Assembly (NCBI GenBank): GCA_041665785.1
Contig: JBAYIE010000006.1
Coordinates: 38,021 to 102,020 of the forward strand
Direction: 5' to 3'
From: Bacteroidia bacterium
GTDB lineage: Bacteria > Bacteroidota > Bacteroidia > UKL13-3
DNA: 64,000 bases
The notes beneath the pieces are model-generated. The model was not told the DNA's origin, did not search any database, and saw only the letters and a program-made list of their open reading frames with translations. Numbering within the stretch: position 1 is the first letter of the stretch; every line of letters starts with the position of its first letter. Shown one piece after another: positions 1,527 to 60,102 of the stretch. The translations under genes were made by a program, and so were the position numbers.

Positions 1527-4073
1527 TTGTTCATCAATCACATGAACATGAAAAAATGGATCGCCCTTGGCTTTAGTATATATTCAACCTTCCTGCAAGC
1601 CCAAACATCTCTGCCTGCAGCCTGGAATTTTTCATCGCCCGGCATTACATCGCCACCCATAGGCTGGACGCTTGACAACAGCCGCGCCGGTGGCACGGGA
1701 GGACAAACCTATGCATTCGGTACCGGAGATAATTTATCCTGTCGCTTTGATGCCGCCGGTGAAAACCTGATCGTATTTTTCGCCGATAAACCCGGACCCC
1801 TGAGTTATTATGTGAGTCCGCAAAATGCCGGAAATCCCTGGTCAGGTTTGTTTGAAGTACAGGAAAGCGCCGATGGAAATTCCTGGTCAAACCTGCGCAC
1901 GTTTACCAGTCAGGCTACTACCACTACCAATTTTACAAACGGCAAACGCAGCGACAATCTTTCTGCAACTACACGCTATGTGCGATTTGTGTTTACTACC
2001 AAAACAAGCGGAAACTTTGCGCTCGACAGCGTACTCATACAACAGGCACCACCACCGTTAAACGCCAGCATTCAAATCAAACAAAACGGGAATGTAATAG
2101 TAGGTGGTTCTACTTTTATACTTGGCAATGCATCGGCCACAACCTTTACTATCGAAAACAAAGGCACCGGACAAACCCTGCACCTCGATTCGGTTTCGTT
2201 TAGCGGAACAACGCCCAATGATTATTCGGTGAGCAACTTTCCGGACTCCATTATTGCAAACGGTAATGCGACTTTTACCCTGAATTTTTCAGCAGCTCAA
2301 AACGGAAGTCGTAAAGCCGCTATGAATATTTACAGCAATGATGCCGATCGACCCAAATACACCATCAACGTTTACGGAATAGGCGGAAACTATGCTACCG
2401 AACCCGCTCAGCCTCCGGTGTTAAACACAAGCAATGTGATGACTTACGGATTTGATGCGACCTTGTTGGCGCCTGTGCAGGTACCCGAGCATTATATTGT
2501 GCTCTTGTATAAAAATGGTGCCGGCGACGACAAACCGATGGATGGTGTAACCTACAAACGCGGCGATTATATTGGCGCAGCGCAGGTGCTGTATGTGGGC
2601 GATAGTGCAAGCCTGATAAAACCTACCCATATACTATCAAATACAGGTTATGCAATGAATGCCTTTTCGTTTAATGGTCCAGCCGGTTTTGAAAATTACT
2701 ACACCACCAATTCGGCCTTTCGCGGATTGATCACTCCCGGTAAAAAACCGGGTACGTATTATAGCGGAATCAACTCGGGCGCACCCAATTTTGTAAGCAC
2801 CCTGTCGCAAAAAATCAATCCGCACGATACCATTTATTATAGCCAATACATTTCACGCTTTATTCAACCTTACCTGACACGCGATACGATTGGGGGCAAA
2901 AAAATAATGAATTGCGTTTATACAACACTTCCTTATGTGTACACCGAACCCTTCCTGTTCTGGAATGGCACAAACGGAGCTACCCTAACCCGCGAACATA
3001 CCTATCCGCAAAGCTGGATGCCAACCCGCAGCCTGCCTACCTGGCCCAATGATGCAAATGGTAAAGAACTGCCTGAATACAACGATTTGCATCATTTGTT
3101 TCCGGCCGATCAGGCGTATGGAAATGGCGTACGCTCAAATTATCCGTTGGGAGAAGTAGTAACCAACCCACAACCTTCTCCGAGTGGTTTGGGTGTATTG
3201 GGAAAAGACCTCAACGGTAATACCGTGTACGAACCCACCGATGCACATAAAGGCGATGCAGCACGGGCCATCTTTTATATGTGTACGGCATACAACGGCA
3301 TCAGCGGAAACAATTGGTCCATTCCTTCATCGCAGGATCAGGATGTATTGAAGAAATGGCATTTTCAGGACTTGCCGGATAATTGGGAAATTGCCCGTCA
3401 TGAATTTATTTATTCCATTCAACACAACCGCAACCCGTTTATCGATAGCATCAATTTTGCATGCCGCATTGACTTCCGCAACATGACCTGGATAGCGAAC
3501 CCGGGCAGTTGTGGTATCGACGAGCGCCGGGTAACTGTGCTGACCCCAAATGGCGGACAAGATCTTAAAAGTGGTACCATTACCCTGGTAATGTGGGATA
3601 GCTATGCCATAGATTCTGTAAAAATAGAACTCTACCACGCCGACACCTTCTTTGCCTATTTAGGAAAAGAAGAAGCAGCACGCGAAAAGTTTTTCTGGAA
3701 AGTAGGATACCATACCGAAACCCTGAAATCCAGCGATTTTAAAATTCGCGTAACAGATCTCCATTCTCCTGCCTTTGACCTAAGTGACGATTATTTCAAA
3801 ATCGAATTCCTCCTCAATGCTCTGGACGAAATAAATAATACATACGATCTTCAGGTTTACCCTAACCCAACCTCGGGCACAGTATATCTGCAAGCTTTAA
3901 ACGGACTACAAATCCAATCCATTCGTGTATTGGATTTGCTGGGAAAAACACATTATGAAAATTCAATCCATGCAGATAATCTTGCCCAAATTCAATTGGA
4001 TAAAAAAGGAATGTATTTGGTTGAAGTAGTAACAGATCGGGGAGTGGTGAGGAAAAGGGTGGTGAGGGAATGA
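1527..4073 (+). CDS. Extracellular endonuclease I family nuclease with N-terminal beta-sandwich domains and a T9SS C-terminal domain.
   Basis: Signal peptide MKKWIALGFSIYSTFLQAQ. Endonuclease I motifs REHTYPQSW, LHHLFPADQAYGNGVRSNYPLGEV, DAHKGDAARAIFYMCTAYNG and HNRNPFIDSINFACRID. C-terminal VYPNPTSGTVYLQ...VVTDRGVVRKRVV looks like a T9SS sorting domain. Confidence 0.75.
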   Translation: MFINHMNMKKWIALGFSIYSTFLQAQTSLPAAWNFSSPGITSPPIGWTLDNSRAGGTGGQTYAFGTGDNLSCRFDAAGENLIVFFADKPGPLSYYVSPQNAGNPWSGLFEVQESADGNSWSNLRTFTSQATTTTNFTNGKRSDNLSATTRYVRFVFTTKTSGNFALDSVLIQQAPPPLNASIQIKQNGNVIVGGSTFILGNASATTFTIENKGTGQTLHLDSVSFSGTTPNDYSVSNFPDSIIANGNATFTLNFSAAQNGSRKAAMNIYSNDADRPKYTINVYGIGGNYATEPAQPPVLNTSNVMTYGFDATLLAPVQVPEHYIVLLYKNGAGDDKPMDGVTYKRGDYIGAAQVLYVGDSASLIKPTHILSNTGYAMNAFSFNGPAGFENYYTTNSAFRGLITPGKKPGTYYSGINSGAPNFVSTLSQKINPHDTIYYSQYISRFIQPYLTRDTIGGKKIMNCVYTTLPYVYTEPFLFWNGTNGATLTREHTYPQSWMPTRSLPTWPNDANGKELPEYNDLHHLFPADQAYGNGVRSNYPLGEVVTNPQPSPSGLGVLGKDLNGNTVYEPTDAHKGDAARAIFYMCTAYNGISGNNWSIPSSQDQDVLKKWHFQDLPDNWEIARHEFIYSIQHNRNPFIDSINFACRIDFRNMTWIANPGSCGIDERRVTVLTPNGGQDLKSGTITLVMWDSYAIDSVKIELYHADTFFAYLGKEEAAREKFFWKVGYHTETLKSSDFKIRVTDLHSPAFDLSDDYFKIEFLLNALDEINNTYDLQVYPNPTSGTVYLQALNGLQIQSIRVLDLLGKTHYENSIHADNLAQIQLDKKGMYLVEVVTDRGVVRKRVVRE

Positions 4074-4118
4074 GGAGGTATGTTGAGTAGCGCATATAAT
4101 TAAGTTAGTGGCAATTTT

Positions 4119-4709
4119 ATGAAAACTCTCATAAAGACATTTATTCTAATTTTAACTCTTGGCTTTACTGCACAAGGACAGACCAAGGATGTTCCTCTAT
4201 TTGACGACTATTCAATTATTAATAGGACTGTTGACAGTTTACTGAAGATCGGAACTAAAGAAATAGTCGTTTTTCAAACAACAAGACCATTCAAATATTT
4301 AAAAAGTTCGGACAGCATACTAACATTTATTTGTTGGCAAATCGCTGACAATTCTATCGTACAAATCGTTACTGATAAAATTGTTTACTCACCTCTTGAC
4401 TTTAATGGCAAAGAGATATTCACCTACAAAGACAAAATTAAAACACTAGTAACAGAGAAGGAAGAGAGCCAATGTACCTTGCAAATGATTGCTCCTGTTA
4501 TCAGCGGTAACGTCTTGTTTTATTATAGCAAAGAGCTCATTGGATACTTTGAGCACCCAGAGTCAAATAGTCCAACTAGGTATAAGCCACAGGTTGACAA
4601 AGAAAAATACCGATCTACTTGGTACAACTTAATCTATAATGTACTGACAAAAGAAAACTTTAATTTCAAAGGCCTTCCTAATTACGACAGAAGTGCCGGC
4701 TATAAGTGA
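4119..4709 (+). CDS. Hypothetical secreted protein or lipoprotein in an AT-rich islet.
   Basis: Signal peptide MKTLIKTFILILTLGFTAQGQ. GC is about 35%, well below the flanks. I recognise no domain. Confidence 0.5.
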   Translation: MKTLIKTFILILTLGFTAQGQTKDVPLFDDYSIINRTVDSLLKIGTKEIVVFQTTRPFKYLKSSDSILTFICWQIADNSIVQIVTDKIVYSPLDFNGKEIFTYKDKIKTLVTEKEESQCTLQMIAPVISGNVLFYYSKELIGYFEHPESNSPTRYKPQVDKEKYRSTWYNLIYNVLTKENFNFKGLPNYDRSAGYK

Positions 4710-10689: not shown

Positions 10690-10975
10690 GCAATAGTGCA
10701 TCTCCGCATGATGCAGCACAACTCCGAACGATGTAGCGCATCTCCGAATGCGCGATTCCTTTCACTACAATGTTGTAGGTGTATCATTTCTCTCCCCACG
10801 TCGCGATGTTCAACCGCGTTGCGGTTTTTTGAGGAGGGGGTGTCACGTGCGGGTTATGGAGGTTGAACCGCGTTGCGGTTATGGGTTTGTTGTTGAGTGT
10901 AAGGTTAGCCCGCCTTCGCCAAAATCTTCGGCGAGGCAATGCATTCTTCATTCTTCATTCTTCATTTTAAACCCA
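10690..10975. repeat. Composite intergenic repeat locus 1: paired GCATCTCCG hairpins, two AACCGC-GTT-GCGGTT hairpin boxes and a (CATTCTT)n microsatellite box.
   Basis: gcatctccgcatgatgc and gcgcatctccgaatgcgc hairpins. tgttcaaccgcgttgcggtt and atggaggttgaaccgcgttgcggtt boxes. ggcgaggcaatgcattcttcattcttcattcttcatttt box. The same boxes recur at three other loci in the window. Confidence 0.7.
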
Positions 10976-13829: not shown

Positions 13830-13940
13830 GAATAATGAAAAATTAAGAATGAAAAGTTAAATTTCTTCATTCTTCTCACCGTCGCTTCGCTTTGGCGACA
13901 CAAAGCATTCTTCATTCTTAAATTTCTCATTCTTCATTTT
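13830..13940. repeat. Composite intergenic repeat locus 2: GGCGAC-CATTCTTCATTCTT microsatellite box.
   Basis: tcgcttcgctttggcgacacaaagcattcttcattcttaaatttctcattcttcattttt, plus reverse-orientation gaatgaa runs. Lies upstream of the PLP enzyme gene. Confidence 0.6.
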
Positions 13941-24339: not shown

Positions 24340-24850
24340 GAAATGCATTCTTCATTTTTCCCGCCGCCGCTGCGCTATGGCGAGGCGAGGCATTTTTCAT
24401 TCTTCATTTCATGTCCCGACAGCAGGGCTAGTCAGTCTTCGTTAAAGCTACTACCGGTCAAGTTCGCTATAGCTATGGCGAGACAAGGCATTTTCTCACC
24501 TCGCGTTGTTCAACCGCGTTGCGGTTGTGGGGTCTTTTCTTCGCATAGAGTTATGGAGGTTGAACCGCGTTGCGGTTTGTCGGGGCATGATCTGAATTTA
24601 AAGGGATAACATAACGCATTAACGAATATGCGATTCATATTGCCCAACATCGTTTTGGTGAGATGAGTCAGTCTTCGCTATAGCTTCGACAGAACAAATC
24701 CATCTACGATAAAGCTACGGCGAGGCAACGCATTCTTCATTCTTCCCGCCGCCGCTAAGGCTTTGGCGAGACAAGGCATTTTTCCCTCCTACGCTAATGC
24801 TACTGTGGACAATGCATTCCTCATTTTTAATTCTTCATTTTTAATTTTAA
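24340..24850. repeat. Composite intergenic repeat locus 3: two CATTCTTCATT + CCCGCCGCCGCT + GGCGAG boxes flanking two AACCGC-GTT-GCGGTT hairpin boxes.
   Basis: gcattcttcatttttcccgccgccgctgcgctatggcgaggcgaggcattttt. tgttcaaccgcgttgcggttgtgg. atggaggttgaaccgcgttgcggtttg. gcattcttcattcttcccgccgccgctaaggctttggcgagacaaggcattttt. Confidence 0.7.
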
Positions 24851-25655: not shown

Positions 25656-26054
25656 ATGAAAACAACCGATATCCACCAAACACTCACCTTCCCAACCACT
25701 CCGCTTGATCTGTATCAATGCCTGATGGATGAACGAAAGCACAGTTCATTCACCGGATCTCCTGCAGTGATTGAAGACAAAGAAGACACATCCTTCACAA
25801 CATATGATGGATATATTGAAGGTAAAAATATTGTACTGGAACGCGGAAAGAAAATTGTGCAAACCTGGAAAGCCAACGAAGAAGAATGGCCGGAAAATCA
25901 CTTTTCGGAAGTGGTTTTTTCGCTGAGTGCGTCGCCTGAAGGTTGCCTGCTTGAATTTTATCATACTGCCGTTCCGGAGACTTTGGCTAAGGATATAGAG
26001 GCAGGCTGGGCCCAATATTACTGGGATCCATTGCGGTATTACCTGAACCGGTAA
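25656..26054 (+). CDS. SRPBCC superfamily protein (AHSA1 / activator of Hsp90 ATPase-like).
   Basis: 132 aa with a start and length consistent with an AHSA1-type domain. Confidence 0.6.
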   Translation: MKTTDIHQTLTFPTTPLDLYQCLMDERKHSSFTGSPAVIEDKEDTSFTTYDGYIEGKNIVLERGKKIVQTWKANEEEWPENHFSEVVFSLSASPEGCLLEFYHTAVPETLAKDIEAGWAQYYWDPLRYYLNR

Positions 26055-26159
26055 GTTTATCGGTGTGCGGTTTTTGTAACTCTTAAACTAGTTGCACCAA
26101 CTTGTCCTGCAATCTTCCTTTATTGATTTTACTGGTTAGTCATCACTTAACTTCGACCT

Positions 26160-26715
26160 ACAGGTACGTCGCGATGTACAACCGCGTTGCGGTTGGATGT
26201 CACGTCAGCTGCCTACGCCATCTGTTATTGAGGTGAAACCGCGTTGCGGTTAGTTGCTGCTGGCTATGGTTTCAGCTATTGGGTGAGATATAGCATTACG
26301 ATCAGTTGCTTGCTATCTTTGGCTTCGGTTATTGAGGTGTAACCGCGTTGCGGTTAGTTGCGGTTAGTTGCTGCTGGCTATGGTTTCCGTAAGCAGAGTG
26401 ATATTGCGTTACGATTAGTTGCTCGCTTACTTTGGCTTCGGTTATTGAGGGGTAACCGCGTTGCGGTTTGTTGAGGTTAGTTGCTGCTGGCTATGGTTTC
26501 CGTTAGCAGAGTGATATTGCGTTGCAATTAGTTGCTTGCTGTCCTTAGCTTTTGTTATTGAGGTGTAACCGCATTGCGGTTAGTTGCATCGTTGCATAAT
26601 GATAGATTATGAATCGTTTCCTTCCCCTGCACTTCGGTGAGGCGATGCATTCTTCCCGCCGCCGCTAAAGCTACCGCGGGCAATGCATTTTTCATTCTTC
26701 ATTCTTCATTTTCTC
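26160..26715. repeat. Composite intergenic repeat locus 4, including a ~3.4-copy tandem array of ~105-119 bp units (26223..26590). Each unit carries the AACCGC-GTT-GCGGTT hairpin. The locus ends with CCCGCCGCCGCT and (CATTCTT)n boxes.
   Basis: Units begin gttattgagg(t/g)g(t/a)aaccgcgttgcggttagttgc...gctgctggctatggtttc...gatattgcgtt(a/g)c(g/a)attagttgct...ctttggcttcg. Terminal gatgcattcttcccgccgccgctaaagctaccgcgggcaatgcatttttcattcttcattcttcatttt. Confidence 0.75.
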
Positions 26716-27105
26716 CCCCACCCATTCCCGTATATAATCAACAATCTCATGGGTATTGGCGCCCGGAAGAAACAATTTTCCAACGCCTGCTTTTGTGAGT
26801 GTTTTTAAATCTTCGTCCGGAATAATTCCACCACCTGTAAGCAGAATATCGCTGAGGCCTTCCTGCTTCATCAATTCGAGTAACCTTGGAAATACAGTAT
26901 TGTGTGCCCCTGATAAGATACTCACACCGATTACATCCACATCTTCCTGGAGGGCTGATTTAACAACCATTTCAGGTGTCTGACGCAATCCGGTGTAAAT
27001 AACTTCCATGCCGGCATCGCGCAGTGCGGTGGCAATTACTTTGGCTCCGCGGTCGTGGCCATCGAGGCCAACTTTTGCTACCAGTACGCGTATAGGTCTA
27101 TTCAT
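26692..27105 (-). CDS. Cobalamin (B12)-binding domain protein, similar to the methylmalonyl-CoA mutase C-terminal domain.
   Basis: [33 protein letters not shown]...[14 protein letters not shown]12-binding Rossmann signature (DxHxxG). The final KMKNEE-stop is encoded by the CATTCTTCATT repeat box. Confidence 0.8.
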
Positions 27106-33736: not shown

Positions 33737-33828
33737 AATTATGTGGTTGAATTGGGGTACGAATTACGGGGTCAACGAGCCGAATTACAAGCGATGAATG
33801 AGAACTTCGGAAATTTATTTAGAAATAA

Positions 33829-34262
33829 TTACGAATGACGAAGTACAAAGTACGAAGTAGCTAAGCCTGGAACTTGTCCTTAATTTAGATCTATCTCTTA
33901 CCAGAGGACTATCATAATTACGAATTACAAATTACGAAGTACGAAGTGGCTAAGCCTGGAACTTGCCCTTAATATAGATCTTTCTCTTATTAGAGGATTA
34001 TCATAATTACGAAGTACAGATTACGAAGTACGAAGTGGTTAAGCCTAGAACTTGTCCTTAATTTAGATCTTTCTCTTACCAGAGGATTATCATAATTACA
34101 TAATTACGAAGTACAGATTACGAAGTACGAAGTGGCTAAGCCTGGAACTTGTCCTTAATTTAGATCTTTCTCTTATCAGAGGATTATCACAATTACATAA
34201 TTACCAAGTACGATGTGGTCACATCCGGAAACTTGGTCTCATTTTCGATTTATCTCTTACAA
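33829..34262. repeat. Tandem direct repeat array: 4 good copies plus 1 degenerate copy of an ~85-98 bp unit containing TACGAAGTACGAAGTGGCTAAGCCTGGAACTTG.
   Basis: Units acgaagtacgaagtggctaagcctggaacttgtccttaatttagatctttctcttaccagaggattatcataattac repeat with a few substitutions. Sits between gmk and a four-helix-bundle gene. Confidence 0.8.
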
Positions 34263-34754: not shown

Positions 34755-35130
34755 TCCACTTTCCACTTCGTAATTTGTACTTCGTAATTCCAAACCCTTC
34801 CCCGTGACCAAAAGGCCCTAACTTAGCACCCATTCATTAGCGGGCCCACTTCGTAATTGGTAATTGGGTTAGTAGTTATTTTGTTATTTAATTCAGGCAT
34901 TCTGGTAAGCCACTTCGTAATTTGTACTTCGTACTACTTAGTTCGTACTTCCATTCCCGTGACCAAAAGCCTCTAACCTTTGCACTCATCCACATGCGTA
35001 CCCACTTCGTACTTCGTAATCCGTCATTCGTACTTATATTCCCGTGACCAAAAGTCCCTAACTTAGCACCCATTCGTTAGCGAGCCCACTTCGTACTTCG
35101 TAATCTGTACTTCGTACTTTTTAATCCGTA
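34755..35130. repeat. Tandem repeat array of 3 copies: TTCCCGTGACCAAAAG(G/T)CCCTAACTTAGCACCCATTC(A/G)TTAGCG(G/A)GCCCACTTCGTA(A/C)TT. Shares the CTTCGTACTTCGTA motif in inverted orientation with the 33829..34262 array.
   Basis: Three copies keyed on cccgtgaccaaaag. taagccacttcgtaatttgtacttcgta is the reverse complement of tacgaagtacgaagtggcttag in the other array. Confidence 0.75.
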
Positions 35131-35133
35131 CTT

Positions 35134-36003
35134 CTAAATTACATTATTTATCTGTTCCTTAATCTTCTCCAACTCATCCTTCATCTCCACCACCCGTTGC
35201 TGAATTTTAAAATGATTGGCTTTAGAACCCATGGTATTGATTTCGCGGCCCATTTCCTGTGCAATAAATCCGAGCTTTTTACCCGATGATTTCATACGCA
35301 TGGTTTCCAGAAAATACTGGCAATGCTGGATCAGGCGTGTACGCTCTTCGGTTACATCAAACTTCTCAATATAGTAGAGCAGTTCCTGTTCGAAACGGTT
35401 TTTATCATAAGAAGCTTCGCTGATCTGTTGCAGCTCCTGATCAATTTTGGTGCGCAATGCATCGATACGTTCCGGTTCCAATACTTCTACTTCTTTCACA
35501 AGTTGGATAATTGCCTGAGTCATACGGTTCAGTTCATCCGACAACATCTCCCCTTCTTTGATTCTGAACTTTTCAAATTCTACAAAGGCTTTGTTCAACA
35601 CATCCATCAGTATTTTCATGTCCTCTTCGCGGTTCTCATCCACCGTTTGTTGAAACAGGTTGGGAAGACTCATGATGTTTTGTACAATATTTTCCGTTCC
35701 CAGGTTAAATTCCTTCACCACATTGGTCAATTCATTGAGGTAGTAACGGGCTACATCTTTGTTGAGCGGTAATACTTTGTCTTCGGCCAGTTTGAACACC
35801 ACATTTACGTTAACCTGACAAGATCCGCGTTCCACAAGGCGATTCAACTCCTTACGCACCTCGGTCTCCTTGTTTTGCCAACCTTTGGGAAGGCGCAGGT
35901 TCAGTTCCAGAAATTTGTTGTTCAGGGACTTGAATTCCACTTTAACGGCAAACCTTTCGGTTTCCAGTTCGGCTTGTCCAAAGCCGGTCATCGATCGTAG
36001 CAT
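35134..36003 (-). CDS. yicC: YicC family stress-induced protein (YicC/RNase AM family).
   Basis: MLRSMTGFGQAE...KSLNNKFLELNLRLP N-terminal signature, plus a C-terminal DUF1732-like helical region. Confidence 0.85.
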   Translation of the reverse strand: MLRSMTGFGQAELETERFAVKVEFKSLNNKFLELNLRLPKGWQNKETEVRKELNRLVERGSCQVNVNVVFKLAEDKVLPLNKDVARYYLNELTNVVKEFNLGTENIVQNIMSLPNLFQQTVDENREEDMKILMDVLNKAFVEFEKFRIKEGEMLSDELNRMTQAIIQLVKEVEVLEPERIDALRTKIDQELQQISEASYDKNRFEQELLYYIEKFDVTEERTRLIQHCQYFLETMRMKSSGKKLGFIAQEMGREINTMGSKANHFKIQQRVVEMKDELEKIKEQINNVI

Positions 36004-47639: not shown

Positions 47640-50600
47640 CTACCGGTTGATGACGATCCGTTTGTTGGTTACCGAGTTATCTATTCTCAAATTGATCCAG
47701 TAAACTCCCGACGACTGACCTGATAAATCAAGGTTGAAGGAGCCGGCATTCAGTTCCTTCTCTCCTTTATAAATCACTTTACCCAAAACATCGACCACCT
47801 CTATGCTTACCCGGAATGCAGCTATATCTTGTAACGATACGGTTACATGACCATCTCCGCTTGGGTTTGGATAAATCCTGGCTGCATTCAAAAGATCTAA
47901 ATCCATCAATCCGCTCTTGATGAAATTGAATGCATCGCTGATGCTTTTGCAATTGGAGGCATTTCCTGTTTCCACCGAATAATTACCATTTTGCGTGGCA
48001 ATCAGATTTTTTGAATTTGCACCACTTATGTTGTTGCCATTCAACTTCCACTGATAGGTTGCGGCAGTAACCGAACACACTAATGTATCGCTGCTGCCAT
48101 TGCGTGTAACAACCGGTTTAACCGGAAGTACATCAATTGTAACAGTTAGCGAAGCTGTTGTATCGGTGGAACAACCGGTATGCACAAGCGCCCTGTATTG
48201 ACGGGAAACAAATGCCGAAACAGTGGTGTTGGTATGTGTATACATTTCATTCGCACTTCCTGCAATAGGTATCCAACTACCCGCATTGTCTTTGAAAATC
48301 CAACCGGTTACAACTCCTCCGTTGATAAAACCACTTGCAGTAACTGCAATGGAATTTCCAGTACAATAAATTGTTGCAGTCGAAGTTGGAACCACGCTGT
48401 TCGCATTCCCCTGCAATTGGGGGTTGATGGTTATCTGCAATGTTCCGGTTGTATCGTAACTGCAGTTAGCGGTATTGAATATAATGGCCCGGTATTCACG
48501 CACCTTGGTATACGAAACATTGGTTGAAGTATGATAGAGAGTGAAGCCGTTATCGTTTATCGCAGTCCAGAAGTTCGCAACGCTGTCGCGGAACAACCAC
48601 TTTACAACACTGCCCGAAAATCCACTTACATTAATGATGGCCGGGGTACCTGCACAAATTGAAGTGTTGTTGCTGGCCGGCATAATAGCGAGATTACTTC
48701 CGTTGGTTATAATATTGATATTTACCGTTACCACTCCAGAACTATCGATGCTACAACCTGAAGTATTGTTCAACAAGGTGCGGTATTCACGGATTATATT
48801 GCTACTTACCTGTGTATTGAAATCATTGATTGATGCAGCGCTACCGGCATTCAGGTATTGCCATTCTTCTCCGGTATTCCGGAACAACCATTGCTGAATG
48901 GTATACCCAACAGGAGTATTGATAAATACATTCACCGGGTTGCCTGAACAAACAGTCAGCTGAGATGCCTGAGCCGTTGTGGCATTCACTCCATTTTGTA
49001 TCGGGTTGATGGTAACAGTGGCCGGTGCAGTGGTATCAAAACTGCATCCGGAAGAATTGATTACCAGAGCTCGGTATTGACGCACAAGCAATGAAGAAGT
49101 CTGGGTATTTACATCACTCCACGATGAAGAAGTAATATTTAAGATTTGCCAGTTATCGGTTGGATTATCGCGGTACATCCAGTATTTCACAGATGATCCG
49201 TTGAATGATCCCAGGGTGATGGTAACCAGTGCACCTGAACATACATTACTATTAGATAAAGCAGGAACAACAGTATTTTGGTTACCATATCCAATCGCAC
49301 TAACATTCACTCCAACGGATGCAGAGGTATCGGTGGGACAACCTGCACCTTTAACAACTACCACTTTATATTGGCGGGTAAATCCAGTGCTGGTTTGTGT
49401 AGCATAATCGTTGAGCGAAGTGGCTGATGTAATGGCCAGATTTGTCCAGCCTCCATTGTCTGTATTCTGCATCCAGCGTTGAATGGAATTGCCACTTCCC
49501 GGATTAACGCTGAGGTTAATCGTAGCACCTGAACATATGGACGTGCTGGCCACTGCAGGAACTATCGTATTATCGATCCCGATTGTACGCGGATTGATGG
49601 ATACGGTCTTAACGGCACTGCTGTCCATACTACAACTGTTATTGTTTTTTATGATAATACGGTACGCTCTTGTTACCGGTGCACTCACAGTAGTATTGTA
49701 ATCCGTTAAAGTTGTCGCACTTCCTGAGTACAAAGTCATCCATGGACCATTGTTGTTGCTGTATAACCAGGATTGTACCGTATGACTTCCTAGACCTGAG
49801 GTTCCTAAAATTACCGGAGTACCGGTACAATATGATCCACCATTTGAAGTCACCATGATATTGGTATCTGTGCCGAGCATACGGGGAGAAATAAAGGCTG
49901 TATCGTTGATGGAAGTTGTATCATACCGGCAACTTGCTGATTTGTAAATCAACAATGCATATTGCCGGTTAATGGCATTTGTCGTATTGGTATTGTAATC
50001 GGTTATGCTGATGGAGTACCTGTGCATATTGTTCCATGCTCCGCTGTATCCATCGCGGTACAGCCAGGTGTTTAATTGTACACCACTCAATCCATATGCA
50101 TCTACATCAATGAAGGAGCCGGTACAAACTCCCTTATTGCCATTGATTGCTGTGCTCGAAAACGTATCGGTTCCGTATATTAATGGATTGATATATACTG
50201 ACACTTCACCGGAAGTATCAAGCGTACAGGAGTTGCTCTTGCTTATTATTGCACGGTACCTGCGGTTCACCAGACTCACCGTATTTACAGACTGTATGAT
50301 GCCCGACAAAGAACTATACATAGGAATCCATGGACCTAAATCTTCACTGTATAACCAGTATTGTACAAAATTGCCCGATCCGGCATTTATATTGATATTG
50401 AATGAATTCCCTGAACAAACATTAGACCCTGATTGTGAAGTTGGAACAATGCTGTTGTCGTTTCCGTATGTTTTCGGATTAATGGTAATTACAGATGCCG
50501 CGGTGGTATCGATCCGGCAATTGCCCGCTTTATACAAAATAGCGCGATAACCCATTGTATAGGAGTTTTGTTGTGAAGCAGCAAACTCACCAAATTGATA

Positions 50601-53600
50601 ATTGGTGACCGGAGTAATATATCCTCTGTCTATCCAGTTTCCTCCGTTAAAATTATACAACATTCGGATAACAGTGGTATCCGATGCAACATTCATCGAA
50701 ACAGTATAATTCATGCCCATACAGGTTGATAGTGGTACTACCGGCGATCTTGCATTGTTATTTCCCAATACAACAGGATTGATGGTTACGGTAAGTTTTG
50801 CAGTTGTATCTAAACGGCATGTGGAATTGTTGTTGATGATGGCTACATAATCGCGTGTAACGGTTGTTCCTACATAGGTGTTGTAATCTGAAATATTGTT
50901 GGAATTGCCATTCAATAATACCGTCCACGATTTATTGTTATCGCGCGAGAGCCATCGTACAATTGAATTGCCACTTCCTGCTGTAACTGCAATGCTTTGA
51001 ACAGGTGAGCCGGCACAAACATTTACAGAGGTAGCGGTTGGAACTTTTGAAATATCCGTACCTGCAATTTTTGGAGAAATGGTAATGGTTACAGCATTCG
51101 TAGTGTCGTAGCTGCAATTCTTTAAGAGTATTACTTTGTATTGCCGGGTGGTTACATTGCTGAAATAGGTATTGTTATCGTTGATACTGGATGCTGAGGT
51201 AACAGAATGCGTAAACCATTCACCATTATTATCCTTGTATAACCAGCGTTGAATGGTAGAACCCGCTACACTTAAACTGATACCAGCGGTATTTCCGGCA
51301 CAGATCGACGCGTTCGTTGTAGTAGGTGTTGCTGCGCTTAATCCTCCGGTATAATTACGTAAGAATACACTATCCATTCGAGTTGAATCAGAAATACAGG
51401 AGCTCGTCGAAACAACAATGGCTCTGTAAAAACGCCAGGTGGAAGAGGCAACTGCTGTATTGGTATGGTTAAAGAATGATGTACTGCTTGAAGGTATTAC
51501 CTGCCAGCTCATTTTATTGTCATCACTGAAGAGCCACCGTTCGATGTAAAAGGAGGTGCTGACGCTCATACTTACAGTGTTTCCGGCACAAACAGTATCT
51601 GCTGAATTCACAAATGCAGCCAATCCGCTAATTCCATAAGTTTTATTTTTAATAAAAACATCTTTTACGCGATTTAGAGTGTCGTAACTGCAGGTGGCTC
51701 CTTTCAATACAATCGCTGTATAGCTCTTAATGGTTCCCGGAGGATATAAGGTCGTATTATCGGTGATACTGGAGGACTGGGTGGAGGAAGTGAAATTCTG
51801 CCAATTGCTTTTGTTAATGGCATACAACCATTTCCAAACAGAATTTCCATTGCCTGGTGATAAACTCAGACCTAAGTTGGTTCCTGCACATATGGTATCG
51901 AAAGCTGATATGCTGATACTGGAATCATTTCCGTAACTGATCGCTTTGATAATTACAGCTACCGCTTGTGTGCTGTCAAAATCACAGGAACTGGTATCAC
52001 TGATAATAGCCCGGTACAACCGCGTAACGGAATTGGAAACTTGCGTTAAATTATGGGTATAAGCATGTACATCTGAATTGTACGCATTCACCCAGGGACC
52101 GGTTACCCCATTGTCGCTGTATGTCCAGCGTTGCACTGTATACACACTGGAAGTTGGTACACTCAGGGAAACCGTAGATCCTGAACACATGGATGTCTTG
52201 TTTGTTGTTGGCAAAATAGCACGGTTACTGATATTCGAACCCTGAGGTTGAATCAATAGGGTTAATGCTGAAGTGGTGTCAGCCTGACACGTATTCGTAT
52301 TGTTTACAATGGTGCGGTATGAGCGGCTGACAGGTTCTGCGACCCATGAATTCAAATCGGTTATTGTACTGTTGGTATTGTTGTTTGTGAACATGTTTCT
52401 CCATTCGCCGTTATTATCGGTAGTGATCCACTTTGCAATCGTGTAACCCGAAGAAATATTTTTCAGTGCAATATCAACGGGTGTTCTGTAACACCAGATG
52501 TTTCGGGTGCTCGAAGGCTGCAAACTGCTGATATTACCACGTACCAATGGACTGATGAGTATATTAACTGCATTGGACGTATCGATGGAACAAGCTACCG
52601 GGTTCGTGATAATGGCACGATAAGCCCGGTTAACCGGACTACTTCCGTTGATATTGTATTCTATAATACTGCTTGCATTCGTTGTATAACCAAAATCTTC
52701 CCAATCGCCATTGTTGGAACTCATCACCCATTTCAAAACCGTTCCGGTATAGGTGCCTGAATTGAGGTAAATTTGCGGCGTTGTACTGCGGTTACATACC
52801 GATGAAACACTGGAGAGAGGCGTTACGGAAACTTGTCCGCGAACACTTGGATTGATAGTCACGCTGTATGCTGTCGATGAATCATAACTGCAAGCATTGG
52901 TATTGTCAACAATCACGCGGTACGACCGGGTAGTTGTAACAGGAACATAGGTATTGGTATGAGAATAAGAATTGGTTGCCGATGATGGAATTTCATTCCA
53001 GGCCCCATTCAGGTTGTCGCGGTAGATCCATCTGCGAACACTGCCTGCAGTTGGCAGCGTATTGGAAATAACATTCACTCCAACCGGTGATGTACTGCAG
53101 AAAATACCGGAAGCAGAAGTAATGGCTACTGCACCAGCGTTTCCTTTTGTGCGTGCATTGATTTGCACGGATACTGCAGCTGTAGTGTCATATGAACAAC
53201 CATTGGTATAAGTAATAGCGCGGTACGACCTTGACGTGTTGGCCAAAACCTGCGTATTGGATTCATAAAAATTGGTTGTTGAACTGGAACTGCTTATTTC
53301 TAACCATGGTCCGGTTTGGTTATTGCGATAAATCCATTTTTGAATATTGTTGCCAACTAAAGAAACATTGAATGTATTGCCACTGCAAATACTTACTGTG
53401 TTAGCAGTAGGTTGCAAAGCCGGAGCATTACCGTAACCATAAGGTTTGAGTTGTACCGACAAAATCTGCGTTGTATCTATGCTACAGGTTCCCTGTCTTA
53501 CCAAAAAAGCACGGTAATCACGATTAGTAGCTGAATTCACATAGGATTTGTTATCATATAAATAGGTTGATGCAGTTGAGCTCGCAAATTCTGACCAGTT

Positions 53601-56141
53601 ACCACCATTGTCGCGATACATCCATTTTTGCACAGACCCTGAATAGTTGTTGAGGTAAACCGTTAAGGTTGAACCTGAACAATTCACTGTTGAATTGGTA
53701 ATTGGAGTGTGCGAACTTGTTGTTCCATTCATCAAGGGTGATAATACCACTGTAACAGCGTTGGAGGTGTCTGTTGTACAGGTATTATTGTTGTTGATTA
53801 CAACTTTATATTCCCGATTGGTTTGAGTCAATACACGTGTTCCTGCCGTGCTTTCGGTGTATGTAAAAGAGGTGCCGGTCAAATTTTTCCAATCACCTCC
53901 ATTGTCGCGCGACATCCACCTAACCACACTAAATCCGCTCAGAGAAGCACAGGTAATTTGCAAACTTGTTCCACTGCATATGGCATTTGAACTGGCTGTA
54001 GGTAAGATATTGGGATTGTTTTGCCCCACACGTTGATTTACCATTAGGGTTATCGATTGCGTAGTATCGTATTTGCACATTCCCTGATTGTAAAGAATTA
54101 CACGGTATGTTTTACTGGGATTATTTGTGCTGGTATAATCACTTGGATTGGTGGAGTTATACCCGAATGCATACCAGTTTTGAGAAGCTAATTCTCTTCC
54201 AATCCAATTGCTTACCGTATACCCGGTTGGCGGTACAATTCCCAGTTGCGTATTGTTTCCATTGCAAATGTCCGACTGCGTGGAGTAGGGAGTTACAGCC
54301 AATGAACCTCTGATTAACGGATTGATCTCCACATGTACTTCATTGGAAGTATCCAGGCGAAGTGTTTCCAGATTTTTTATCAAGGCACGGTAACTGCGTA
54401 TGGTTTGTGAATTCAGGCTTCCTGTATTATTGTCGTAAAAGGTTGTATTGGTTTGTGCAGATAACACATTCCAGTCGCCGGTTTTATTATCGCGATAAAT
54501 CCAACGGCCAATCAACATACCTGTTGGCAGCGAAATGTATCCGCTTACCTGTGCACCAACACAATAGGCTGGTTGGTTGATGATGGGTGTAATATCTGCC
54601 AATCCTCCGGGTGCAGGCAATTTGATCAAAACCTGAACTGCCGGTGTTGTATCTATACGGCATTGAATGGTATTGTTGAGCAATACCCGGTAAGCACGTT
54701 GTGTATTGCTGCTCATGTTGGTATTGTTGTCGGTGTAGGTATATCCTGAACCCAGCTGTACCCAATTGCCGGTATTGTTATTACGGTATATCCAATAGCT
54801 AACCGGTGTACCATCGCTAATCTGCAATTTTACCTGTGCCCCTGCACATACTTCTGTTAATGAGGTTGCGGGAATGGCCTTGTTTGTAATTCCTCTCCGG
54901 TTAGCTCTTACGGTGTAAAAAACCGAAGCTGAAGTATCATAACTGCAATTCAAAGAAGCATTGTTCACCACAGCACGCACTTCACGCGTAAGATCATTTA
55001 AAATATTGCTGTTGCTGGTAAGTGATGCGGTAGTGCTATTGCTGAAATTCGTCCACGGCCCGGTTGCGCTATCTCTGTAATACCATGATCGGGATGATGG
55101 CCCCTGCATTTGAAATGTTTGGTTACTCCCGGCACAAACATCAATCAAACTGCCTGTAATCTGAGGTACCATATTCAACAGATAGCGGCGTTGTGCCGCC
55201 TGAATAAACAAGGAAACTTCATCCGATGTATCAGCACTGCAGGTATTGGAATTCAGGAGTACTACTTTATAACTACGGTTGATTGACGCAGAAACTGCCG
55301 TGTTATAATCGATTGCAGTAGTGGTGGCTGAACTAAAAACATTCCATGAGGTAGCACTTCCATCCCGGTACAACCAGTTGCCGATCTCCATGGGCCATTC
55401 CAATTGTAAACTCACACTGCTTCCCCCGCATATTTGCTGTTGTGTCAAAATCGGTTTAATATTTACATTGTTTCCGGCAACCACCGGATTTATTTGTATA
55501 GCTACGCTTGCTGAAGAATCCAGTTCACATGTAGCCGGATCCTTTACCATAACCCTGAATTCGCGCAGGGTATTGATATTCACATAAGGCATTTGTATGT
55601 TGAGTGATTGGCTGCTGCTGTTGATATACACCATCCAGCTTCCTCCATTATCGCGGTAAATCCATTGCGTTATCTGTGTACCCGCATTCATGATTCTCAA
55701 TGTCACAGTGCTTCCGCCACATGCCTGATAAGCAGAAGCCGATAATGAAATTCCATCGTTGTTTCCATAAGATGGAGGTACCACATTTACATCGACTCCA
55801 TCTGTAGTATCACTTGCACATGAAGCGGTTGTTACAATCGCTCTGAATGTGCGTACGGTTGGCACCGTTTGCGACATATAAAAATTGATATTGTCGCTGT
55901 TGGTATTGTACGCAATCCAACTACCGGTATTATTATCGCGGTAAACCCAACGGGTAACCGGTAAACCAGTAGCATACACGTATACGGTATTGCCCGAACA
56001 AATAGTTTCGTTTGATACGGTTGGTTTATAATTCGCCACTGCTCCACACTGTGCCCACGACGTTCCATAATTGGTCAACAGCAAACCAAAAATCAGCAGG
56101 AAAGAATACACAGATTTAAAAAGGATGTCGAAGTTTTTCAT
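47640..56141 (-). CDS. Giant (2833 aa) T9SS-secreted protein composed of about 27 divergent tandem ~100-aa repeats; probable adhesin or surface protein.
   Basis: Signal peptide MKNFDILFKSVYSFLLIFGLLLTNYGTSWAQ. Each repeat carries W(L/I)YRDN.G.W, R.YRA(I/V) and C..DTS..V.V.I.P motifs (for example WIYRDNKTGDW, WLYKDNNGEW, WMYRDNGGNW). C-terminal IYPNPSGDGHVTVSL...GVYWINLRIDN sorting domain. Confidence 0.8.
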   Translation of the reverse strand: MKNFDILFKSVYSFLLIFGLLLTNYGTSWAQCGAVANYKPTVSNETICSGNTVYVYATGLPVTRWVYRDNNTGSWIAYNTNSDNINFYMSQTVPTVRTFRAIVTTASCASDTTDGVDVNVVPPSYGNNDGISLSASAYQACGGSTVTLRIMNAGTQITQWIYRDNGGSWMVYINSSSQSLNIQMPYVNINTLREFRVMVKDPATCELDSSASVAIQINPVVAGNNVNIKPILTQQQICGGSSVSLQLEWPMEIGNWLYRDGSATSWNVFSSATTTAIDYNTAVSASINRSYKVVLLNSNTCSADTSDEVSLFIQAAQRRYLLNMVPQITGSLIDVCAGSNQTFQMQGPSSRSWYYRDSATGPWTNFSNSTTASLTSNSNILNDLTREVRAVVNNASLNCSYDTSASVFYTVRANRRGITNKAIPATSLTEVCAGAQVKLQISDGTPVSYWIYRNNNTGNWVQLGSGYTYTDNNTNMSSNTQRAYRVLLNNTIQCRIDTTPAVQVLIKLPAPGGLADITPIINQPAYCVGAQVSGYISLPTGMLIGRWIYRDNKTGDWNVLSAQTNTTFYDNNTGSLNSQTIRSYRALIKNLETLRLDTSNEVHVEINPLIRGSLAVTPYSTQSDICNGNNTQLGIVPPTGYTVSNWIGRELASQNWYAFGYNSTNPSDYTSTNNPSKTYRVILYNQGMCKYDTTQSITLMVNQRVGQNNPNILPTASSNAICSGTSLQITCASLSGFSVVRWMSRDNGGDWKNLTGTSFTYTESTAGTRVLTQTNREYKVVINNNNTCTTDTSNAVTVVLSPLMNGTTSSHTPITNSTVNCSGSTLTVYLNNYSGSVQKWMYRDNGGNWSEFASSTASTYLYDNKSYVNSATNRDYRAFLVRQGTCSIDTTQILSVQLKPYGYGNAPALQPTANTVSICSGNTFNVSLVGNNIQKWIYRNNQTGPWLEISSSSSTTNFYESNTQVLANTSRSYRAITYTNGCSYDTTAAVSVQINARTKGNAGAVAITSASGIFCSTSPVGVNVISNTLPTAGSVRRWIYRDNLNGAWNEIPSSATNSYSHTNTYVPVTTTRSYRVIVDNTNACSYDSSTAYSVTINPSVRGQVSVTPLSSVSSVCNRSTTPQIYLNSGTYTGTVLKWVMSSNNGDWEDFGYTTNASSIIEYNINGSSPVNRAYRAIITNPVACSIDTSNAVNILISPLVRGNISSLQPSSTRNIWCYRTPVDIALKNISSGYTIAKWITTDNNGEWRNMFTNNNTNSTITDLNSWVAEPVSRSYRTIVNNTNTCQADTTSALTLLIQPQGSNISNRAILPTTNKTSMCSGSTVSLSVPTSSVYTVQRWTYSDNGVTGPWVNAYNSDVHAYTHNLTQVSNSVTRLYRAIISDTSSCDFDSTQAVAVIIKAISYGNDSSISISAFDTICAGTNLGLSLSPGNGNSVWKWLYAINKSNWQNFTSSTQSSSITDNTTLYPPGTIKSYTAIVLKGATCSYDTLNRVKDVFIKNKTYGISGLAAFVNSADTVCAGNTVSMSVSTSFYIERWLFSDDNKMSWQVIPSSSTSFFNHTNTAVASSTWRFYRAIVVSTSSCISDSTRMDSVFLRNYTGGLSAATPTTTNASICAGNTAGISLSVAGSTIQRWLYKDNNGEWFTHSVTSASSINDNNTYFSNVTTRQYKVILLKNCSYDTTNAVTITISPKIAGTDISKVPTATSVNVCAGSPVQSIAVTAGSGNSIVRWLSRDNNKSWTVLLNGNSNNISDYNTYVGTTVTRDYVAIINNNSTCRLDTTAKLTVTINPVVLGNNNARSPVVPLSTCMGMNYTVSMNVASDTTVIRMLYNFNGGNWIDRGYITPVTNYQFGEFAASQQNSYTMGYRAILYKAGNCRIDTTAASVITINPKTYGNDNSIVPTSQSGSNVCSGNSFNININAGSGNFVQYWLYSEDLGPWIPMYSSLSGIIQSVNTVSLVNRRYRAIISKSNSCTLDTSGEVSVYINPLIYGTDTFSSTAINGNKGVCTGSFIDVDAYGLSGVQLNTWLYRDGYSGAWNNMHRYSISITDYNTNTTNAINRQYALLIYKSASCRYDTTSINDTAFISPRMLGTDTNIMVTSNGGSYCTGTPVILGTSGLGSHTVQSWLYSNNNGPWMTLYSGSATTLTDYNTTVSAPVTRAYRIIIKNNNSCSMDSSAVKTVSINPRTIGIDNTIVPAVASTSICSGATINLSVNPGSGNSIQRWMQNTDNGGWTNLAITSATSLNDYATQTSTGFTRQYKVVVVKGAGCPTDTSASVGVNVSAIGYGNQNTVVPALSNSNVCSGALVTITLGSFNGSSVKYWMYRDNPTDNWQILNITSSSWSDVNTQTSSLLVRQYRALVINSSGCSFDTTAPATVTINPIQNGVNATTAQASQLTVCSGNPVNVFINTPVGYTIQQWLFRNTGEEWQYLNAGSAASINDFNTQVSSNIIREYRTLLNNTSGCSIDSSGVVTVNINIITNGSNLAIMPASNNTSICAGTPAIINVSGFSGSVVKWLFRDSVANFWTAINDNGFTLYHTSTNVSYTKVREYRAIIFNTANCSYDTTGTLQITINPQLQGNANSVVPTSTATIYCTGNSIAVTASGFINGGVVTGWIFKDNAGSWIPIAGSANEMYTHTNTTVSAFVSRQYRALVHTGCSTDTTASLTVTIDVLPVKPVVTRNGSSDTLVCSVTAATYQWKLNGNNISGANSKNLIATQNGNYSVETGNASNCKSISDAFNFIKSGLMDLDLLNAARIYPNPSGDGHVTVSLQDIAAFRVSIEVVDVLGKVIYKGEKELNAGSFNLDLSGQSSGVYWINLRIDNSVTNKRIVINR

Positions 56142-59607: not shown

Positions 59608-59694
59608 CGGAGAGTTGTCAGAGTGGCCGAACGAGCGCGCTTGGAAAGCGCGTATACTGTAACAGGTATCGAGGGTTCGAATCCCTCACTCTCC
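59608..59694 (+). tRNA. tRNA-Ser (anticodon GGA), type II with a long variable arm.
   Basis: ggagagt acceptor stem pairs with actctcc. Anticodon stem gcgcgc / gcgcgt with loop ttGGAaa. TTCGAAT T-loop. Near-identical in architecture to E. coli tRNA-Ser(GGA). Confidence 0.85.
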
Positions 59695-59701
59695 GCAAAC
59701 C

Positions 59702-59730
59702 CAAAATCCCGCTTTTGCGGGATTTTGTAC
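59702..59730 (+). terminator. Hairpin immediately after tRNA-Ser.
   Basis: aaaatcccgcttttgcgggatttt: a 10-bp stem with a 4-nt loop. Confidence 0.55.
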
Positions 59731-59736
59731 GTTAAC

Positions 59737-60003
59737 GAGCACTGCGTCAAAAGCCCCAAAGCTTTTGTAAGCAGGGCGAAGTGAACGTACAACAAATTCC
59801 CGCCTAGGGAATTTGGGTTTGTTTCTCCCCCCAACGGGATCGCGCGCCAGCGCAATCTTTCCTGATTAGTTAGTTTCCGATAGCACTGCGTCAAAAGCCC
59901 CAAAGCTTTTGTAAGCAGGGCGAAGTGAACGTACAACAAATTCCCGTCTAGGGAATTTGGGTTTGTTTCTCCACCCAATGGGATCGCGCGTTAGCGCAAT
60001 CTT
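59737..60003. repeat. Two tandem direct copies of a ~122-bp element (59737..59859 and 59882..60003) downstream of tRNA-Ser.
   Basis: agcactgcgtcaaaagccccaaagcttttgtaagcagggcgaagtgaacgtacaacaaattcccg(c/t)ctagggaatttgggtttgtttctcc(c/a)ccca(ac/at)gggatcgcgcg(cc/tt)agcgcaatctt. Copies differ at about 6 positions. Each contains aattcccgNctagggaatt and aaagc..gcttt hairpins. Confidence 0.8.
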
Positions 60004-60102
60004 AAAGTATTATTTATATGTAAAATGCAATTCTTTTGAAGGATTCCCAAAAATATGCACCACCCATATTTCAATTTAAATTTGAATAAATCCAATATAG
60101 TT

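Follow-up and report, generated by a model that had tools for sequence, protein, structure and literature searches.

The window, a 64-kb stretch of DNA from an uncultured Bacteroidia lineage, contains a non-coding tandem array of 364 bases (positions 26224–26587) between an SRPBCC gene and a B12-binding gene, which is where the preliminary description had placed it. Both genes are read toward the array, and the spacer that separates them (SRPBCC|B12) is 637 nt long. A single hairpin unit precedes the array, and a mosaic of further modules follows it, the last of which overlaps the stop of the B12-binding gene. Two dispersed hairpin pairs, each consisting of a first (hp1) and a second (hp2) unit, represent the same repeat family elsewhere in the window. 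The features are listed below by position.

10797–10880, plus strand: dispersed pair of hp1 (10812) and hp2 (10866), head-to-tail, 54 nt apart, followed by a CATTCTT module
24497–24577, plus strand: dispersed pair of hp1 (24512) and hp2 (24563), head-to-tail, 51 nt apart
25656–26054, plus strand: SRPBCC/AHSA1 gene (PF08327), convergent with the B12-binding gene
26165–26207, plus strand: leading hp1-type unit, TACGTCGCGATGTAC-AACCGCGTTGCGGTT-GGATGTCACGTCA, sharing its flank with the dispersed copies at 10797 and 24497
26224–26327, plus strand: array unit 1, 104 nt; A1 half with an intact hairpin at 26237–26251, B1 half with the decayed hairpin TATAGC-ATT-ACGATC
26328–26440, plus strand: array unit 2, 113 nt; A2 hairpin at 26341–26355, GGTTAGTTGC duplication at 26347–26371, B2 half
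26441–26553, plus strand: array unit 3, 113 nt; A3 hairpin at 26454–26468, B3 half
26554–26587, plus strand: partial unit 4 (A4), 34 nt; hairpin at 26567–26581 with the loop ATT
26588–26712, plus strand: downstream mosaic modules, CATAATGATAGATTATGAATCGTTTCC followed by CCCGCCGCCGC..GCATTTTTCATTCTTCATTCTTCATTTT, common to the relative L028
26692–27105, minus strand: B12-binding-domain gene (PF02310), convergent with the SRPBCC gene

Tandem Repeats Finder, run on the window, described the array in two ways, with a period of 113 and 3.0 copies at 26243–26587 (86% matches, score 506) and with a period of 52 and 6.7 copies at 26224–26587. When the unit borders are anchored on GTTATTGAGG, the array consists of units of 104, 113, 113, and 34 nt, or 3.3 copies. 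The about 3.4 copies of 105–119 nt reported earlier were thus correct as to the existence of the array, and slightly off as to the range of unit lengths. Units 2 and 3 are 88.5% identical, units 1 and 2 78%, and units 1 and 3 74%. Every unit is a diverged dimer of a sub-unit of approximately 52–61 nt and is made up of an A half, GCTnnCTTTGGCTTCGGTTATTGAGGTGTAACCGCGTTGCGGTTAGTTGC, in which the AACCGC-GTT-GCGGTT hairpin is intact, and a B half, GCTGGCTATGGTTTCCGTAAGCAGAGTGATATTGCGTTACGATTAGTTGC, in which the hairpin has decayed in B1 and B2. In B3 the hairpin reads ATTGC-GTT-GCAAT, and its pairing is kept through two double changes. The resulting order, A1 B1 A2 B2 A3 B3 A4, is that of a higher-order repeat, and six 50-nt sub-units with alternating A and B identity recur at spacings of 104, 61, 52, 61, and 52 nt. 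The B halves were also considered as decayed hp1 units, an assignment that was rejected because they align better to the A halves (best score 14.8) than to hp1 (3.0). The 10-nt duplication of GGTTAGTTGC noted in copy 2 is real (2.5 copies, 100%), and a diverged form of it is present in unit 3 (26460–26483). A CRISPR array was rejected, since the whole period repeats and the "spacers" are homologous between units. No open reading frame (ORF) of at least 40 aa extends across the array. A 46-aa ORF at 26555–26695 on the minus strand, which is a called gene in public assemblies, consists only of repeat modules and the last array unit and is probably a spurious call.

The basic element of the family measures approximately 52–57 nt and carries a triloop hairpin of 6–7 bp with the foot AACC/GGTT, here AACCGC-GTT-GCGGTT. 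A conserved flank of about 13 nt precedes the hairpin and contains ATGTTC in hp1 and GTTATGGAGGTTG or GTTATTGAGGTGT in hp2; in the dispersed pairs the conserved flanks are CGCGATGTTC for hp1 and GTTATGGAGGTTG for hp2. The hairpin-bearing 15-mer AACCGCGTTGCGGTT occurs nine times at 0–1 mismatch in the 64 kb, always on the plus strand, versus 0.18 occurrences expected. All nine copies are intergenic and their hairpins span 15–19 nt, as is characteristic of REPs in the sense of short (20–40 nt), many-copy extragenic palindromes. The family is confined to three loci in the window, and at each of them the hairpin units are followed by common further modules, with a block of CATTCTT heptamers as the last. 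Scored against hp2 the A halves reach 19.6, compared with 9.8 for hp1. One module of the dispersed family has therefore expanded locally and head-to-tail into the array, as had been proposed, and this module is of the hp2 type, GTTAT(T/G)GAGGT..AACCGCGTTGCGGTT. Orientation relative to transcription varies, the copies at 10.8 kb being antisense and those at 24.5 kb sense; GC skew on the plus strand is negative, a value with which gene orientation is confounded in a 64-kb window. The same family is found in a related organism from another metagenome, with four units per locus (L026 and L027). L026 contains two tandem hp1-hp2 modules and L027 four units, one of which, AACCCC-GTT-GGGGTT, represents a G-C to C-G swap. 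Viral contigs contained no hairpin pairs, and a literature search for the 15-mer AACCGCGTTGCGGTT retrieved no paper. The CATTCTT heptamer module also occurs at gene ends in its own right (10935–10968, 13899–13932, 24724–24757, 24808–24841, and 26679–26712) and two minus-strand ORFs that are unrelated to each other take their final codons and their stop from it, both ending in KMKNEE*. An analogous run of AATGAGT heptamers lies at the same gene end in the relative L029.

Several other repeats are present in the window. A gene of the 23S_rRNA_IVP family (PF05635; 34271–34639, minus strand) is bracketed by two tandem arrays at 33825–34213 and 34756–35148, whose 89/97-nt units are rich in TACGAAG heptamers. 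These two arrays are mutually inverted, with arms that reach up to 97% complementarity across 34 nt, and an array of this PF05635-flanking family also exists in L026 (7724–8090). At 59609–60016, starting 42 nt after tRNA-Ser(GGA), a 144-nt unit is repeated in 1.8 copies with 95% identity; the 183-aa ORF across this duplication matches nothing in Pfam and is likely to be a spurious call. An ORF of 2,833 aa (47640–56141, minus strand) contains several internal repeat families. Pfam searches with the ORFs that adjoin the repeats of the window revealed no transposase.

Comparison with relatives dates the array to this lineage. L024 shows complete synteny with the region, with an SRPBCC protein that is 73% identical and a nucleotide identity of approximately 71–76%, and its SRPBCC|B12 spacer is 9 nt long. 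In L028, at 86–90% nucleotide identity, the spacer comprises 149 nt and has kept the CATTCTT module and another hairpin module, and the AACCGC hairpin is absent. The array entered the SRPBCC|B12 spacer in this bacterial lineage only. A second spacer, between a PAP2-like gene and an ECH gene (the locus at 24497–24577), equals its counterpart in L028 plus exactly one 54-nt hairpin unit, and the single unit retained by L028 is decayed. The unit counts of the two species are thus 8 versus 0 in the SRPBCC|B12 spacer and 2 versus 1 in the PAP2-like|ECH spacer. Across loci and species, counts of 0, 1, 2, 4, and 8 were observed, and gain and loss therefore proceed by whole copies. Within the species, the comparison comprises only identical assemblies and short-read contigs that break off within the array.

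A scan for the hairpin pair alone, with one genome per species, retrieved 17 loci from 14 metagenome-assembled genomes (MAGs) of six phyla. All 17 loci are intergenic and many are tandem arrays. A Y1_Tnp gene (PF01797) is present in 6 of them. In L008, L012, and L022, which are orthologous loci of three species, and in L018, a 148-aa Y1 gene starts 17–18 nt after the hairpin array, which in these loci is arranged head-to-tail in 2.3–3.4 copies of 52–53 nt units. The gene-adjacent units of L018 and L008 have in common with the units of the window the 15-mer and the preceding 13 nt, GTTATGGA(T/G)GTTG. In L014, from a member of the Pyrinomonadaceae (Acidobacteriota), hairpins enclose the Y1 gene on both sides (3+3, inverted relative to each other), an arrangement that resembles a REPtron. 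This L014 gene (about 4007–4447, minus strand) is split by a frameshift, and it could be a pseudogene or reflect a sequencing error. In L010 (Saprospiraceae) the Y1 gene is located 3.5 kb from the hairpin pair. In L008 (1956–2221) and L022 (1900–2165), two tandem SAM-I/IV riboswitch aptamers lie directly 3' of the Y1 gene, in front of a 472-aa ORF. In four phyla the hairpin arrays were found with no Y1 gene in the up to 8 kb fetched. Arrays of the identical 15-mer AACCGCGTTGCGGTT occur in L011 (2566–3271), L009 (6431–6507), L017 (1530–1598), and L021 (5220–5289), often beside a second hairpin, CCCAGGG..CCCTGGG; tandem or dispersed arrays of AACCGCGTTGCGGTT are represented in Planctomycetota, Verrucomicrobiota, Oligoflexia (27-nt period), and Treponema (55-nt period).

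Loci retrieved by their hairpins are subject to ascertainment bias, and an unbiased test was therefore based on two homologues, P0071 and P0164, that were picked by protein alone. P0071 resides at one locus in 7 contigs, each of which ends 142–719 nt upstream of the gene. Here, TTCAACCGC-TTC-GCGGTTG is found on both sides of the gene and CAACCCT-GAA-AGGGTTG just before the start codon. P0164 likewise resides at one locus (rlmN|Y1|DinB) in 23 contigs, with TTCAACCAC-GTC-GTGGTTGG 6 nt past the stop and TAACCCT-GAA-AGGGTTA before the start. These hairpins (AACCGC-TTC-GCGGTT, AACCCT-GAA-AGGGTT, and AACCAC-GTC-GTGGTT) lie 6–330 nt from the gene and are absent from the rest of the locus. A scan defined as AACC plus at least two further pairs, a loop of 3–6 nt, and GGTT found none in 38.5 kb of control loci and, once the three repeat loci are set aside, none in the window. 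In other genomes, the hairpins flank the Y1 gene in L008, L012, L022, L018, L014, L031, and L038, so that AACCNN-N3-NNGGTT hairpins accompany the gene in all lineages examined. No Y1 gene is located within the 64-kb window, so that this organism is tied to the enzyme by the sequence homology of its repeats to those in other genomes and not by co-occurrence.

The Y1 proteins contain an HuH motif of the form DHLH, DHVH, or DHAH, the residues WQ, and the tyrosine motif YVENQENHH, YVLNQEIHH, or YVLNQPEHH. Among the matches listed (120 of 1,673 homologues at E<=1e-15), Y...Q..HH and DH[LIV]H are present in 120 of 120, and 107 of these 120 are 148 aa long. Subclass 1.2 of TnpA-Y1 has been described as 148-aa proteins with DH[IV]H, WQ, and YIKNQKEHH, which occur at low copy number in Cyanobacteria and Bacteroidetes (Quentin et al. 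2018, PMC6006769). Because of the Y---Q--HH motif, the enzyme next to the hairpins is assigned to this subclass, with which it agrees in its length of 148 aa, in DH[LIV]H and WQ, in its low copy number, and in its presence in Bacteroidetes. It differs from the published description in that the gene is flanked by AACCNN-N3-NNGGTT hairpins, whereas subclass 1.2 was reported to have no IS properties and is entered in Table 1 of that study as "REP: no" (PMC6006769), and in that one member belongs to the Acidobacteriota (L014). We found no later work on REPs of subclass 1.2 in the literature collection searched, and viral contigs contained no Y1 relatives of this subclass. A class 2 RAYT was considered as the candidate enzyme and rejected: the proteins score 26–28 bits with the NCBIfam model REP_Tyr_transpos (RAYT), versus a cut-off of 80, and their tyrosine motif is YVENQENHH, not YIxxNP. 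With the NCBIfam IS200 model they reach 56–62 bits versus a cut-off of 55, and their best solved relative is IS608 TnpA (E = 4e-5). The Y1 gene is syntenic in 4 species, and P0071 and P0164 each keep a single locus in all their contigs. In being fixed at one locus across samples and species, it resembles a domesticated RAYT, not an IS.

Several alternatives to a mobile-repeat origin have to be weighed, beginning with the reality of the array itself. Two Logan short-read assemblies stop inside it, as would be expected of a repeat that was collapsed or inflated during assembly; however, they break exactly at the sole 31-nt exact repeat, which is also the longest inside the array, and their flanks equal the window although they leave the copy number unresolved. 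The units differ from each other by 12–26%, and the 637-nt spacer is spanned in identical form by an ENA k141 contig and a JGI contig (each 110.6 kb), with 0 mismatches to the window over 12.4 and 17.5 kb. An assembly artefact, the possibility that the preliminary description itself had named as an objection, is thus hardly credible. That description had also suggested an array of structured RNA. Small structured RNAs transcribed from the spacer, for example as an sRNA, as a sponge for proteins, or as a type III antitoxin, would be in line with repeated units that each contain a hairpin with some compensatory changes, and with a content of 68% G+T on the plus strand. The sole consensus structure over 20 copies of the family is a hairpin of 5–6 bp, in which 95% of cells are paired, double changes affect 3 of 6 pairs, and the covariation score was reached by 0 of 500 shuffles. 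Double changes in quasi-palindromes can also come from template switching, with no selection needed. Against a structured RNA, Rfam gave no match at the array, either at gathering thresholds on the whole window or at E<=10 on 25900–26800, and none at the arrays of 18 other loci at gathering thresholds. When the spacer and individual units were folded as RNA, on either strand, the result was no better than for shuffles (z -0.5 to -1.6). Moreover, only the short hairpin is conserved, the B-type hairpins, which make up half of all hairpins, are decayed (0 to -2.5 kcal/mol), a scan of the array for sigma-70 promoters and terminators yielded no site above chance, and close relatives lack the array. 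There is no toxin-like gene adjoining it either, and a ToxI-like type III toxin-antitoxin system was rejected because the neighbours are the convergent SRPBCC and B12-binding genes, with no endoribonuclease toxin. We therefore regard a structured RNA as very unlikely.

The further suggestion of a contingency locus, in which copy number would switch the expression of a neighbour by phase variation, finds some agreement in the tandem nature of the repeat and in the different unit numbers of related species, but the arrangement of the genes argues against it. The array lies 3' of both convergent genes, and since both are read toward the spacer, neither a reading frame nor the spacing of a promoter can be altered by the number of units. 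Each frame of the array contains 7–8 stops, a scan for the Bacteroidetes -7 box (TAnnTTTG) gave one site versus 0.5 expected, which is chance level, slippage should be rare between units of 104–113 nt that are only 74–88% identical, and the copy number was the same in two assemblies. Phase variation thus appears extremely improbable. Less easily dismissed, though still unlikely, is an exapted, REP-like role in cis on the convergent transcripts, where the array would stabilise 3' ends or block read-through or, in a variant, offer a series of binding sites to a DNA-binding protein of the host, a role that has been described for E. coli REPs. Such a role would be compatible with the BIME-like origin favoured below and does not exclude it. 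The position in the 3' region of both genes and the moderate stability of the A-type hairpins (-8.4 kcal/mol as RNA and -6.2 as DNA) would fit, and REPs elsewhere are mostly situated downstream of ORFs (PMC3733652). However, no array hairpin is followed by a T-run on its 3' side, the array contains no terminator-like site, relatives manage with spacers of 9 or 149 nt, and orientation to transcription is not fixed. Finally, the repeat may derive from a MITE or a solo end of an ordinary mobile IS (of the DDE type, IS200/IS605, or PATE) that was later duplicated. This origin would account for a dispersed, intergenic repeat gained in one lineage, and the IS200 TnpA-related Y1 gene that adjoins copies elsewhere slightly exceeds the cut-off of the IS200 model. 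Yet terminal inverted repeats are missing (0 inverted pairs in 25900–26800), no target duplication is visible at the boundaries set by comparison with L028 and L024, and the Y1 gene, besides belonging to a subclass described as having no IS properties, is syntenic across species and restricted to a single locus in the 7 and 23 contigs mentioned above. We consider a MITE or IS end quite improbable.

Among known repeat systems, the array resembles in its workings most closely the BIME-2 clusters of E. coli. Both consist of short extragenic hairpins in tandem at one locus, with copy numbers that vary between genomes and with same-locus copies that are more alike than copies at different loci, and in both, here in other genomes, such hairpins also border a single-copy Y1 (HUH) gene on its two sides to form a REPtron. 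For BIME-2, the tandem copies have been proposed to arise by strand transfer by the enzyme (PMC3333891). Unlike BIME-2, all units of the array are head-to-tail instead of alternating, the GTAG tag is missing, the stem is perfect with 6–7 bp and a triloop, an A+B higher-order repeat has formed, and the candidate enzyme belongs to class 1 (subclass 1.2), not to the class 2 RAYTs. The GTAG and CGTC super-families of REPs (Di Nocera et al. 2013, PMC3733652) are likewise small palindromic intergenic repeats of several phyla, often situated between convergent or co-directional genes and sometimes clustered. Those REPs have an unpaired tag at the foot, and CGTC stems are 8–9 bp long with loops of 4–5 nt (PMC3733652), none of which is present here. 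The tag GT[AG]G/CGTC is absent from the foot of the stem, where the 5' flanks are ATGTTC, GGAGGTTG, or GAGGTGT. A CGTC in some copies was rejected as a tag, being 9 nt upstream of the stem in 2 of 5 hp1 copies only and absent from the L026 copies. Inverted pairs of the REPIN/BIME kind number 0 in 25900–26800, all nine copies being on the plus strand. Structurally, the array is closest to the boxB run in the pneumococcal BOX element, boxA-(boxB)n-boxC (PMC3049150), which is also a modular intergenic mosaic with an internal module of about 45–55 nt in variable tandem number and is also the source of spurious ORFs annotated by gene callers. The sequences are unrelated, however, and the terminal inverted repeats and target duplications of BOX, which is thought to use a DDE transposase (PMC3049150), are not seen here. 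Lacking a GTAG or CGTC tag, inverted dimers, and a class 2 RAYT, the array is best filed as a REP/BIME variant outside the named families.

We interpret the array as a BIME-like cluster whose units belong to a non-coding, REP-like hairpin repeat that is probably serviced by a subclass 1.2 Y1 enzyme, and assign this reading a probability of roughly 0.6. An hp1-hp2 pair would have entered the convergent SRPBCC|B12 spacer in this lineage, and the hp2 unit would have been duplicated, with one copy diverging into the B half. The A+B dimer would then have been amplified about three times, giving rise to the higher-order repeat, and the GGTTAGTTGC slip would have preceded the last duplication. Dispersal of the repeat may have occurred in trans through a single-copy subclass 1.2 Y1 (HUH) enzyme acting on the single-stranded hairpin, in which case an enzyme of this kind would be present in this genome. 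Mobilisation of single-stranded hairpins is established for IS608 TnpA and the TnpA-REP of E. coli (PMC3333891). The array itself may have grown by slipped-strand events or unequal recombination between identical stretches of 26–31 nt or, alternatively, by Y1 strand transfer as proposed for BIME-2. The A units carry GTGT or GTGA where the hairpins adjacent to Y1 genes have a TTC/TTG foot, and this difference, together with the decay of the B hairpins, favours passive duplication for the array itself. Tandem growth may thus be independent of the Y1 enzyme. If the array affects the cell at all, for instance by placing a hairpin at the 3' end of read-through transcripts, this would be incidental.

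A more far-reaching reading, to which we would give somewhat less than even odds, is that AACCNN-N3-NNGGTT triloop hairpins with a (T)TC/TTG foot are the cognate REPs of the orphan Y1 enzymes of subclass 1.2. They would constitute a third type of REP beside GTAG and CGTC, spreading and multiplying head-to-tail and common to Bacteroidota and Acidobacteriota, of which the array in the window would be a product. Judging from the arrays of the identical 15-mer, this type perhaps also extends to Planctomycetota, Verrucomicrobiota, Spirochaetota, and Bdellovibrionota.

Taken alone, the array is ordinary: repeat DNA, selfish or neutral, that expanded within a single spacer in a single uncultured lineage of Bacteroidia. 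In practical terms, its hairpin units break short-read assemblies and yield spurious ORF calls. What the analysis adds is a candidate pairing of a defined hairpin (6-bp stem, triloop, AACC/GGTT foot) with a widespread Y1 family that exceeds 1,600 proteins at E<=1e-15 and that the only survey we found had described as having neither REPs nor IS properties (PMC6006769). If this pairing is true, the subclass 1.2 enzymes would gain a substrate, and domesticated systems of the REP/RAYT type would extend past the Proteobacteria-style GTAG repeats. It would also explain why one and the same 15-mer recurs in the arrays of several phyla.
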